A stretch of 64,000 nt of DNA from Candidatus Omnitrophota bacterium (GCA_030693145.1 JAUYBI010000041.1:10228-74227); one strand, 5' to 3'; positions 45,001-51,000 are shown, counted from the stretch's first letter. Notes: generated from the sequence alone by a model not told the origin. Translations and numbers: made by a program.

Positions 45001-48000
45001 GAGAAGGCCGGATGATGAAAAAATGTTTAAGTTTAGGCATAGACGTTCCTGTTGGGCAGCAATTTGCAGAGTGGGCATTTATTGTGATAGACGCGGGATT
45101 TGTTAATCAGTTAAATAATCAGGATACCGCAGGCATTCTTAAGGAAGGATTTGAAAGGTATAGTAAATATATTCTTGGAAAAAATGTTCCCGAAATAAAC
45201 TTAGGCGAATATGCGGATTTTGTAAATAAAGTAATTATTGCCCGCGAAAGCCCACTTGAACAGACTAGGCATGGCGGCCAAGAGCTAGATATACCTGAAG
45301 AAAATTATAAGTTAATGGAGTTATTGAGCCCATATATTGATTTATTGATGGAAAGCGAGTCGTTGAACAAAATAATTACGCAAGCTCAGCAGAATGTTAT
45401 TAATGAAAAAGGCATTAGCAAGGTAGATTTAAGGTCAGAATTTACGGAGAAAACTACTCAAGGATTATTGAATAATAATGAAGGCGAATTTTCGGTATTT
45501 AATGAGGGAAAAGAAGGTGTTAGATATATAGGTGAAGATGGCGGAAGAAGTCAAAAATTAGGGAGCTTTGCCGGAAGAAATATAGGTTTTTTTTATGGAA
45601 ACTTATTAAAATCTTTTCCAAAGCACCTATTATTATTTAAGAAGTTTAAGGAATTGTTCCGCGGATATGCCCGCATCTTTGCCGGAAAGCAAGGGCGGCT
45701 TCATATCGCCAGGCTTAGGACCTTATGGGTTGAATTTGGACGGATATCCTTTGGATTGGGTTCTAAATATAATAGTATTGCTTCTTTAATGTTCTTAATA
45801 GTTTCTTTCTCGGTCTTGCCTTGGCTGTGGCATCCGGGCAATGAAGGAACGCTTGCGGCAATATATCCGTCTTGGCCTTTTTCAAGTACGATTTTGAGTT
45901 TCATTATTATCACCTCCCTAAACAAATATACAGTAGATAATTTACTAAGTCAAGGCGATTTTGGCGTCATCTCGAGAAGATTAACGGACGGCGGCAGGAA
46001 GGAAAAGGCACAAGTTGGAAAAGCAAAAGATGGCGGAGCGCTTGATTTACTTAGTATCCAGAGGCTTACGGAATTAAGAATTACCTGTGCGGATTTTCAG
46101 GCAATTGAAGTTTTAAAAAAGAGAGTTGGCCTTATACCGGAAGGAGCTTCTTTCGGTGTTACCTATAAGAAAGGAATGTATCGGTTGGTAACTTTTAATA
46201 GCCTGTGTTCGCAGGGAGAGATCGCTCTGGGCAGGGCGCAAGGATTTGATGCAAGCGCGGCAGTGGTTAATTTTAGCAAAATCTTAGAAGACAACAATGG
46301 TTTTGGAGGGGATCAAATAAAAAATGTTTTAGTAATAGGCCCGGGAAATACCCTGGCGGAAGTTAAGTTATTATTGTCAAAAAATCCGAATTTAGAAAAA
46401 GTGTCGGTTGTTGAATGGCTTAGGGGCAATATTACCGGTTTGTTAGATGAATTAGGCGCGATGCCAAAAGAGGAGAGGGCAAGCATTGAGGTTTATTGCG
46501 TTGATCCTAAAAATACGCCTTTTAACGAAAATAGCTTTGGCTTAGTTTGTTCTAATAAAAACGGCGGTACGAAAGTATTTGATGGCGGGCGGGAGGTTTA
46601 CGGAAAAGAAAGCATCAAAGGTAGTATGGCGAATTTAATTATCCGTTTATTCAGATTGGTAGCGGATTTTGTTAAGTCATTAAAGGCCGAATCATTAGGA
46701 AAAAGCGCGGTGATTTTAGCGCCGCCTAGCGTAGATCTCAATTCTTTACTTGATATTAATAACTTGTTATTGGCCGCCGTTGGAATTTTAATAGGGTTTA
46801 TCGGCTTTAAACTTTCCTCCTCAGCTAATTCTTACCGTAGGTACAATAATCTTATAATCATCGGGCCGTACAGTTTTTCGAGAAATCCAATATATTTAGG
46901 CGGAAATTTAGAATTCATTGGTTTAAGCATAATTGTGTGGGCTTTTGATCCTTTAGCGGGATTTGTCTTTACGATGATATCTGTAGTGTTTATTTTGTTA
47001 GATCCTTCTATAATTTGGGCTGAAGAAAAAAAACTTAAGTACGAATATGGCGATCAATATAAACAATATTGCAATTCTGTTCCGAGATGGTTTTCTCTCA
47101 AGCTGTTTTTGAAATTTATTGCTTCCAGTAGAGCAAAAGAAGCTTCTGAAGAAATCGTCACAAGCCATACCTCAAAAGACGGCGGCAGGCAGGAAAAGGC
47201 TCAAGGCGCAAAGTATCCTTCGCCAACGTTGGATTCCGCAAAAATGATATGGGATACTCTTGCAAGGTTTATTCCTCGGGCTGGTTGGTTGAGGCCGCAA
47301 GGAGTTATCCATATCCTTGATGTGGGCTGCGGTAACGCGTTTGGAGCGGCTTCATTTATAAGTTATTTTGGAGGAAAGGAGTTTGGAGAATTTAGCAGTG
47401 ATGTAAAGGTAGTATGTTTAGATATTGAGCCTAGAACTCCGCATAAGTACCTTAAGTTAATCGTAGGCGTGGAAAAAGAAAATGAATTTGCCGGGAATAT
47501 AAAATTTGTGCAGGAAGACGCGAGATATTTGTCTATGCTGAAATATAAACATCAGGATTTGCCCAAGGAATACGAAGTGATAATATTGAGAAATCCCGAT
47601 CCTCGGTTAATCAATAAAACTATTATAAATACAACTATTTTAGAGGAAATAATTGAGCAATGTTTAGCTAACCTTAAAGATAATGGCCTTTTTATCATTA
47701 CAGCCAACAGGGATTTTATAATTAATGCTGCCGAAAAAATAATATCTTTTTACTATAATCCCGAATATCTTAGTTTTTATTTAGATAAAAAAGTAGGCCG
47801 GGAAAACATTCCTTTCTCTGGCGAAATATTTTTTGATTCTTATATTACGATAGCGGTTAAAAGATCCAGAGAGGTAATTAACAATCCTAGGCTAAGAGAA
47901 GAAGGGGCAAATATTGCTGGCGGGAAAATTCAAAATAATGCGGAGAAATTTGACGGCGGCAGGGAACTATTTGGAATGCCGGTAATGGCAAGAATAGTAA

Positions 48001-51000
48001 TATACCACAAAAAGGTCAATGATAATAATTATGAAAGCAATCAGGTAAGGGATAACGTTATCCATATAAATTTAAATTTATTTCCTCCCTTTTATGACCC
48101 AGAGGAAAATAATAAGAGCCAGTATACCCGCCAAAATATAGAAGGTCAAAAGATTCATTATTCTGCTTTTGAGATAACGTTCCTAAATTCCCGATTTGGC
48201 GCTGCGGACACGGGAAAGAAATTGATAGATTTAGGCATGGACCGGAAGGTTAATATTCAAATGCCCCAATTTTTCAATCGGCATCTTTTGGCTTACATCG
48301 AGAATTTCAATTCCGAAGAGTTTTCCGTTTTTGTCAATATCTATGAGTATTCCATCGCGCAGTTTACGGGTTTCTTTAGCCTTGCCGCTCTGGAATTGAA
48401 TATACAAAGCATCCGCCTCTTGATCAAATCTTATTTCCATAATCTATCCCCTCTCTTTAAGCCAGTAAGTAGTAATAATAACTATTTCTCCATCAAGGTT
48501 TTTATAAACAACCTCAAGCTTTTTAGTTCCGAAATCTTTCTTAGCGATATGATCTCCTCCAAAACTAGAATGTATTTTGTCAGGATGAGCGATAGTGTTT
48601 TCGATTTGTTTCTTAGAAAGTTACCTTTGATTTATCCGAAGATTAGCATGTTTGGTATAGATGAATTTCACAATAAAAACCGTATCATGCCTGCGATGAT
48701 AAGTCAAGATGGATTTGCCGCCAGCGCGCAAGGCCTTGACGGCGGCGCGTCAGTTAAATCGGAAGAAATAAAACCGTTTCAAATTATTTCTATGATAGTC
48801 AGAGACGGCAACACTGATGGCAAAAAAGAAAATCAGCCAGAAATAGATGTGTCTTTTGAGATTGCTAAAAAATTATTAGAATCGTTGGAAGTAGAAAAAG
48901 ACGGTTACATTTACGAGATAAGAGTTTGTAAGTTTGATTTCGCAGTCCCAGAAATAATGAGAAAAATATCTAGTTATGTTTCATCTTCAGATTTCAGTGA
49001 AACTATTTCTTATATATTCAACGTAAGAAACGATGTTTCAGGAGTAGAATTATTAGAATATATATTAGAAAATAGGGAGATTGCTGTTTTTGATGATACT
49101 CTGATAGAAATTGGGCAAAGAAAGGGTGTGTTTCATCAAGAGGCTAAAAATGAAATAATGTCTGTTTTAGACAGGTTGAAGCAGGGAATTGTTTCAGAAT
49201 GTGCAATTGTGCCTCATTCGGAGCAAACTATAAAGGATAAAGCAGAAAAGAAGATTCTTGAAGTGTTAGCTGAAATATCCAGAGGAAGGGGCGCTTTGTA
49301 TTTCTGGCAAGAAACTTTCTATAAAATTATTGAAGAATTTGGTTCCGCTGCTATTGATTTTATCTTAAAGAAAATTAGTGATGCTGAAAATAATGACTTA
49401 AGGTATTTTGCTAATTGTTGCCTGACCACTGGGATATTGGGGCAGAACAATGAAGAGAAAAGAAGAGAATGTTATAGCGAAGTATTTGAGTTTTATAGAA
49501 ACAGAATAAATAACACAATTCCTTTAGATGAATTATTCCATATTCTGAGATGGGAAACACGTAGGCTGAGCAGTGTAGTTGTTCCTGCCAGTTTATTTAA
49601 CAGTATAGAAGATATTAAATATCTAATTAAAGCCGGACAAATGTCTCAATTCTATGGCCCCGGTTATTATATCCCTAGCGAAGATGTTTTTGAAATTATT
49701 ATAGATTTTTATCCTTCGCCATCTAATTGGAACACAACACAGCGATTTTATTATATATTTACGCCCGAAATACCCTCTGTAGATACGCCTGCACCTTACT
49801 TCCAAGTAAAAAAGTTAAAATTTTGCGAATATGGATTGTATGAAAAAGAATTAGCTTGCGAAAGCCTGTCTATGGAAGATATGGATTCGTTGCGAAAGAA
49901 ATTTAATGATAAAGATGGCCTGGTTATAATTACTAAAGGTGTTAGAGGCGCTATTACGACGGTTGTGCCTACGCTAGGCTTGCATATGCATTCTCATAAT
50001 GATGGCAGGCGTGGCCCATCTCTTGAAGATTATTTAGATTATGAAAGATTTAATTTTGATAAGGATGGGGGAGAATTAACTGGTGAAAAGCAAGAGAAGG
50101 AAAATATTTCTAATTTAATTGTGACAGTGGATACGGAAAGAGACGGCGGTGAGTCAGCCATTATTATTGATATTGGCGCAGGATATGGCGGCGTAGCGAA
50201 GTATTTAGCAGGGAAATTCCCAGCCTCTCGGAGAATAGCTTTGGAACCGGAAGTTGACGAAACCGCGTGGCTTAAGAAGTATATAACGAGGGACGTTTCC
50301 CAAGGGGACACCCTTGACCGCTCAGCGCGCCTTGACGGCGGAGATTTGAATAAGGGAATTTTACTTGAGAAGTTTAATAAATTCTTCTACGGAGAGTCCA
50401 GCACCTTTGAGAATAGAATAGAGTGTTCCAGGTTTAATGGTTTTGGAGCCGTGAACTGGAACTATACAGCGTCTATTCAGGTCGGTTTGATGCCGCATAA
50501 TAACATGGGAGCCGCTTTGGCGTTTAATAAAAAATCCGTGCTTTTCAAGGGCACGGATAACCTCTTTGCCAGAGACATGTGGCAATTTGGTCATACAGAA
50601 ACCTCTATATCTCTTAATTCGACCTCTACGTCAGATTCCGGAATTGGCAATTTATCATCTTTCAATGACCATAGATACAAATTAACTGCCTCTTTAATAT
50701 TAGCCAATGCCTCTTCTGTGGTTTCTCCTTGGGAAGCGCACCCGGGAAGCGCCGGAACATGGACAGAATATCCACCCTCGACCTCACTTTCAATAATTAC
50801 CTTAAGGTGCCTCAACATATTTATACCTCCTACTTATAAAAATACAATACATTTATCCCCAAGTCAAGGTAAAACTTCAATTCCTCTTGGCAGGCAGGCT
50901 AGTTTTGGCCGTTCAGCGCGCCTTGACGGCGGCGCCAAAGTTAAAAACCAGCGCTCCAGAATACTTGTTGAGCTGGAAATTGCTAAGGAAAGATTTGAAA

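Follow-up and report, generated by a model that had tools for sequence, protein, structure and literature searches.

HicAB modules are toxin-antitoxin (TA) systems of type II described in Escherichia coli, Burkholderia pseudomallei, and Yersinia pestis, and characterized HicA toxins carry their catalytic histidine in a Gly-Ser-His region. Orphan antitoxins and toxin pseudogenes occur in chromosomal TA loci (the “anti-addiction” idea), and the Vibrio superintegron is a sedentary chromosomal integron with TA cassettes. Giant proteins that gather multi-enzyme metabolic clusters have been described in Omnitrophota (bioRxiv 10.64898/2026.06.07.730766; West-Roberts et al. 2023, bioRxiv 10.1101/2023.11.21.568195). 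Here, we analyzed a stretch of 64,000 nt from a Candidatus Omnitrophota bacterium (GCA_030693145.1, JAUYBI010000041.1:10228-74227; hereafter, the window), in which Pfam families identify five TA pairs, all on the minus strand between 44.2 and 51.9 kb and antisense within a giant open frame of the plus strand. The best explanation overall, and one that we consider probable, is that these are antisense TA operons housed in a stop-free giant frame, two of whose toxins were disabled by lesions that preserved that frame.

Two disabled toxins in the antisense cluster

Each cassette sits between two DGG codons (Asp-Gly-Gly) of the giant frame and follows a common order on the minus strand, in which a CCGCCGTC junction comes first, the -35 box (C)CTTGACT(T) and the -10 box follow with 17 nt between them, and the two genes, either next to each other or sharing 4 to 11 nt, come last. 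Cassette 4 (50361-50818, minus strand) served as the intact reference, with hicB at 50591-50818, hicA at 50361-50594, and a promoter at 50839-50867; its products match HicB (1.5e-11) and the whole HicA_toxin profile (positions 1-58 of 58, 5.7e-22).

Cassette 2 (45537-45995, between the DGG codons at 45537 and 45987) combines HicB with a remnant of HicA. Its hicB (45701-45904, minus strand) encodes an intact short-form antitoxin of 67 aa, which matches HicB_lk_antitox (PF15919) at 3.5e-8, better than the curated cut-off, and shares 51% identity with the cassette 4 HicB along 45 aa. Translation probably starts at the ATG at 45904, which the Shine-Dalgarno sequence GGGAGGTGA precedes; the TTG at 45925 proposed by the automatic call of open reading frames (ORFs) was rejected, as it falls inside the -10 box of the promoter-like site at 45925-45953 (minus strand; TTGACT, 17 nt, TATATT). 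The hicA remnant (45633-45704, minus strand) has only 23 codons and keeps both termini and the ATGA overlap with hicB. On its own it has no Pfam match, and aligned to the intact HicA it has 5 identical residues among the 10 at its N-terminus and 9 among the 13 at its C-terminus, with a score of 58.8 against 18.3 ± 4.7 in 2,000 shuffles, none of which scored as high. At the DNA level, 76% identity to the intact hicA extends over the final 49 nt of the remnant (repeat family D8). The gap between the two halves amounts to 54 codons (162 nt), is in frame, and corresponds to residues 12 to 64 of the intact copy, including Gly-Ser-His. The intact hicA has CAAAG at both break points (GGCAAAGAG and CTCAAAGGT), consistent with one deletion mediated by microhomology. 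Cassette 2 retains a HicB domain and a two-gene operon with promoter and translational coupling, and lacks a HicA domain with the catalytic histidine region, which makes the short gene a remnant and not a member of the family.

In cassette 3 (47952-48746, between the DGG codons at 47952 and 48738), DUF4258 is followed by DUF2283. The DUF4258 pseudogene (48444-48671, minus strand) opens with a GTG at 48671 and is full length except for one in-frame TAA at codon 17 (48621-48623, minus strand), which the giant frame reads as a plus-strand TTA leucine codon (48621 mod 3 = 0). No in-frame restart follows this stop. With the stop masked, DUF4258 (PF14076) is matched over positions 1-71 of 71 and so on both sides of it (8.2e-9), and an intact homolog on the Athalassotoga plasmid pATS2, which aligns over its full length at 35% identity, carries Asn where the stop lies. 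The DUF2283 partner (48231-48440, minus strand) is complete, with 69 aa, its own Shine-Dalgarno sequence, and a match to PF10049 at 1.1e-17 (2-49 of 49). This gene order recurs on pATS2, and on pACMV6 DUF2283 comes after a RelE/ParE toxin; judging from these plasmids, a toxin followed by DUF2283 is typical of the family. Both domains are thus in place in cassette 3, and the uninterrupted toxin ORF is missing. The promoter-like site at 48679-48707 (minus strand; TTGACT, 17 nt, TACGGT) scores 8 of 12, below the scan threshold passed by the other four; its -10 box is the weakest of the five, yet it retains T1, A2, and T6, the three most conserved positions.

An initial annotation had read cassette 2 as a HicA cut to 23 codons by an in-frame deletion of its core, with termini and ATGA overlap kept, and cassette 3 as a DUF4258 gene with a TAA at codon 17, harmless to the giant frame, behind a degenerate TACGGT box. 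Alignment to both ends of the intact copy and to Pfam bore these readings out, along with the assignments of HicB, the HicA remnant, DUF4258, and DUF2283 and the use of the HicAB pair at 50361-50818 as reference.

Stop avoidance in the giant sense frame

The plus-strand frame 3..64000 contains 0 stops in 21,332 codons, compared with 1,838 and 2,294 in the other plus frames, and since it runs off both window ends its length is at least 21,332 codons. Within the cassettes, the other two plus frames have 9 to 26 stops each per cassette and the giant frame has 0. Antisense TAA, TAG, and TGA correspond to TTA, CTA, and TCA in the sense frame. Six TA genes or remnants share codon alignment with the giant frame, and in these none of the 39 leucine codons is TTA or CTA and there is no TCA; in the four TA genes lying in the other register, TTA or CTA accounts for 18 of 47 leucine codons.

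We recoded the antisense genes (coding ranges 44294-44804, 45633-45925, 48231-48671, 50361-50818, and 51191-51782, minus strand), holding each protein constant while drawing its synonymous codons anew according to codon usage at the locus. The probability of obtaining no sense-frame stop was 0.003 to 0.11 per gene, and about 1e-17 jointly over the ten genes. These figures argue that the giant frame is held open through the cassettes by selection and not by chance, with antisense proteins that stay family-like; a frame kept stop-free in this way is evidently translated. Any frameshift in a cassette would also displace the giant frame, and a stop on the sense strand would terminate it, so the routes of toxin loss are limited to in-frame deletion, antisense nonsense, and missense. 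The two lesions observed, an in-frame deletion of 162 nt in hicA and an antisense nonsense TAA in DUF4258, both leave the giant frame open. The initial annotation had touched on the giant frame as a side remark; its harmlessness claim was right, and the frame turns out to be the main constraint on toxin loss.

The remaining cassettes and the modules of the giant frame

Cassette 1 (44294-44746, minus strand) pairs a DUF7718-like gene with an intact DUF5647 (44294-44566) behind a promoter at 44718-44746 (TTGACA, 17 nt, TATACT). The first gene (44559-44711, minus strand; 50 aa) matches only positions 5-44 of 104 of the DUF7718 profile, with E = 1.9e-4, below the curated cut-off, and may be a third truncated partner, although the evidence is weak. 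The mRNA of this cassette appears leaderless, with the ATG 6 nt past the -10 box. Cassette 5 (51191-51839, minus strand) encodes intact DUF433 (51558-51782) and DUF5615/PIN-like (51191-51568) proteins behind TTGACT, 17 nt, TAGACT. The tail of cassette 3 has two short, very hydrophobic ORFs of 32 and 26 aa (47967-48065 and 48078-48158, minus strand) near a promoter-like TTGACC, 17 nt, TATACT (48149-48121); they have no convincing ribosome-binding sites and may be due to chance. On several small Thermus plasmids (e.g., pWG13), no toxin is annotated upstream of a DUF2283 gene, which may point to further orphan antitoxins or to an incomplete PLSDB gene table. Outside 44.2 to 51.9 kb, none of the ten longest antisense ORFs matched a family, which confines the antisense genes to the cluster; a sliding-window codon-usage strand caller was too insensitive for mapping them, and NCBIfam, PADLOC, and PDB sequence searches added nothing.

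On the sense strand, the giant frame encodes complete enzymes (Pfam), namely a DegT aminotransferase, APS kinase, a B12-binding radical SAM protein, phosphoglucomutase, 6-phosphogluconate dehydrogenase, 6-phosphogluconolactonase, hexokinase, and an ARMT1-like phosphatase, as well as methyltransferases, an amidohydrolase, and HEAT repeats. Phosphoglucose isomerase (PGI) is present in two full copies (E = 1.7e-288), duplicated modules at 24108-25907 and 29484-31307 (plus strand); the repeated segment 12525-12626/15759-15860 (plus strand) is a second case of duplication. An ORF of >10,000 codons tiled by many enzyme families, as in the Omnitrophota multi-enzyme giant proteins, is present here, and the frame is probably part of such a giant gene. 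The nearest relative of one PGI module (78% identity) belongs to a Candidatus Omnitrophica metagenome-assembled genome (MAG), and other close relatives are stand-alone or differently fused PGI genes without DGG.

The DGG tripeptide occurs in 53 in-phase copies in the giant frame, compared with 5.8 expected; of the 56 GAYGGNGG sites on the plus strand, 53 are in phase and 3 out of phase, and the other strand has 1. DGG (mostly GACGGCGGC) marks module borders, for example at 24108, 29484, 45987, 47178, 47952, 48738, 50334, 50925, and 51903 (plus strand), and modules open straight after it without a start codon. We see two candidate explanations for it, processing at a double glycine or a scar left by insertion. 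Other Omnitrophota giants are reported to have C39 peptidase domains, but this window contains none. We also considered DGG as a general trait of long hexokinase-bearing proteins and dismissed this, as 14 other such proteins showed no enrichment. Two other linker types recur, ...EFS(I/V)F..G.EG.RY.GEDGG at 43145-43233 and 45473-45561 (89 nt, 78% identical) and DGGR(K/Q)EKAQ at 45987-46021 and 47178-47212.

The TA cassettes are flanked by a junction repeat of 23 to 47 nt that encodes ...RSARLDGG and ends in cgctcagcgcgccttGACGGCGG (50295-50341, 50886-50932, 51864-51910, and 54558-54604, with a variant at 48733-48758; plus strand; repeat families D3 and D4). An attC/integron reading of these repeats was rejected, because on both strands 3 of the 4 copies had fold z-scores close to 0, and the covariation term was unfavorable. 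General Pfam scans of the giant frame gave no recombinase domain, with no search aimed at IntI or attI.

Between cassettes 2 and 3, and belonging to neither, 46029-47951 holds three sense modules bounded by DGG, one without family match (46029-46580), one PEMT-like, and one Methyltransf_31. Several sense modules beside the cluster are fragmentary: OMPdecase/HUMPS at 41979-42395 (plus strand; profile 3-104 of 221), PEMT at 46840-47060 (plus strand; 38-104 of 105), and, at 50142-50333 (plus strand), a stub of 64 aa with SAM-methyltransferase motif I. Modules farther upstream are full length. Given these fragments, in-frame erosion may be general in the stretch with the TA cluster.

Explanations for toxin loss and comparison with known systems

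In the explanation that we prefer, five small type II TA operons occupy the minus strand of an 8-kb stretch, each with a putative sigma-70-like promoter and ribosome-binding site, and one mutational event each has disabled the toxin in two of the five, while selection on the giant gene would purge any lesion shifting or stopping its frame. The antitoxin genes can still be read and are probably expressed, HicB of cassette 2 from a strong promoter and DUF2283 from a weaker one. Candidate present roles for these orphan antitoxins are cross-neutralization of the intact HicA 4.7 kb away, anti-addiction, or none.

The initial annotation had seen in the loss of toxins and retention of antitoxins a sign of decaying or domesticated cassettes of different ages. 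Both toxins are indeed disabled and both partners unbroken, but the pattern comes from two events and only partly supports domestication or an age difference. Because the giant frame tolerates no frameshift, only nonsense could visibly break these antisense genes, and the intactness of the antitoxins is for that reason weak evidence of retention or domestication. A toxin-only asymmetry would in any case be expected if the toxins were active, because an antitoxin knockout beside a live toxin is lethal. As for age, one lesion per toxin and the end-to-end match of DUF4258 to its profile point to recent events in both cassettes, and the HicA remnant, 61% identical to the HicA of cassette 4, has not diverged further from it than the two HicB proteins have from one another (51%). 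No firm age difference emerges, and there is no basis for ranking the cassettes.

Several points weigh against the preferred explanation. With two lesions among ten genes, the probability that both fall in toxins by gene count is ~0.22, which is not significant. Both the TAA and the deletion are known from the assembled sequence alone, and expression of the cassettes was judged solely from features in the DNA, in a region where promoter-like sites are no commoner than in shuffles (26 versus 22.4). DUF4258 counts as a RelE/ParE-superfamily toxin by prediction only, its target and experimental support being listed as unknown or none (PMC11980606). Finally, look-up, protein search, and junction scans produced no related locus, and with it no intact ortholog and no empty site. 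Exact-protein look-up of the cassette 4 HicA and cassette 2 HicB returned no record, and a word-indexed protein search with plus-frame 45510-48809 and the repaired DUF4258 returned no match. The junction-repeat DNA pattern found only GC-rich chance matches without long open frames in genome and metagenome contigs (28 metagenome loci, GC 0.55 to 0.73), and a concatenated TA query against viral contigs gave one unrelated weak match.

The whole cluster might instead be dead cargo, ten functionless genes whose frames stay open because the giant frame is under selection and because little time has passed since insertion. The bar on frameshifts would hold whatever the TA genes do, the neighboring OMPdecase, PEMT, and methyltransferase fragments suggest general in-frame erosion, and the first gene of cassette 1 may be truncated too. 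We nevertheless consider this unlikely, as 8 of the 10 genes have full-length family matches and no nonsense codon, all five cassettes conserve the promoter, the Shine-Dalgarno sequences, and the ATGA overlap, and synonymous choice avoids sense stops while the antisense proteins stay family-like, as dual coding predicts. Somewhat less probable still is that the lesions are consensus or assembly errors, the outcome of a collapse from one CAAAG microhomology to the other, or an allele carried by a minority of a mixed population. The window is probably metagenomic, its closest PGI relative coming from a MAG, and each lesion is a single event in an otherwise undecayed pseudogene; a 64-kb frame with neither stop nor frameshift, however, argues for high consensus accuracy, the remnant differs from the intact hicA at too many positions to be a mis-join of that copy, and substitution errors that make exactly a stop codon are rare.

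We give very little credence to the idea that the truncated products are functional, for instance the 23-aa peptide in translational coupling or regulation of hicB, or low-level read-through of DUF4258 as a throttle on toxin dose. The remnant does keep its start, ATGA coupling, and natural stop, and its 61% identity exceeds the 51% between the antitoxins, but a mini-HicA has neither family nor precedent, no read-through context was identified at the DUF4258 stop, and recent events explain the same facts more simply. A different and broader proposal concerns how the cluster arose, and here we can offer only a tentative, rather doubtful reading: selfish TA operons would have colonized a translated, polyprotein-like giant gene on its antisense strand, with recoding or a filter on entry ensuring that they never interrupt its sense frame, and would now be addiction modules guarding a repeat-rich gene of >64 kb against internal deletion, as superintegron TA cassettes do. 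DGG would then be either module-releasing double-glycine processing sites (read-through peptides included) or scars of in-frame insertion. Were such colonization true, the toxin lesions would amount to a natural experiment, and the giant frame would be selected along its whole length and hence truly translated.

Returning to antisense TA operons with frame-preserving lesions, toxin loss with an orphan antitoxin is routine, and the setting is the unusual part. The finding itself is modest; its context, TA operons nested antisense in a stop-purged giant frame, is worth follow-up. For giant genes of the Omnitrophota type, stop-free passage through nested antisense genes is an independent, evolutionary kind of evidence for end-to-end reading. 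An overlapping frame also narrows the routes of gene death, which changes how “intact” partner genes are to be read. If the cluster stabilizes the giant gene, the logic of plasmid and integron addiction modules would extend to the inside of a single gene.

Compared with known HicAB systems, cassette 4 has a full HicA_toxin with Gly-Ser-His, a HicB partner, an overlapping operon, and its own promoter, and cassette 2 has the same layout. Unlike them, hicB here precedes hicA, both HicB proteins are short and without a DNA-binding domain, the HicA of cassette 2 is down to 23 residues, and the operons lie antisense inside the frame of another gene. The locus resembles other orphan antitoxins in having a disabled toxin beside a readable antitoxin ORF, with an intact paralogous system nearby that could be cross-neutralized; it differs in that the overlapping giant frame restricts the possible lesions, so that finding the antitoxin unbroken says much less for selection than in an intergenic setting. 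Like the Omnitrophota giants, the frame is long (>21,000 codons) and tiled with phosphoglucomutase, hexokinase, methyltransferases, radical SAM, and HEAT modules, whereas antisense genes, TA pairs in the ORF, and a DGG junction are mentioned in neither paper on them (bioRxiv 10.64898/2026.06.07.730766; 10.1101/2023.11.21.568195). With the superintegron it shares several unrelated, promoter-bearing TA pairs set among unrelated modules bounded by short repeated junctions, and by analogy stabilizing the array against deletion is a plausible role for the TA cassettes. Here, however, the junction repeats have no conserved hairpins, and the array is one translated frame, bounded by in-phase DGG and not by structured attC.

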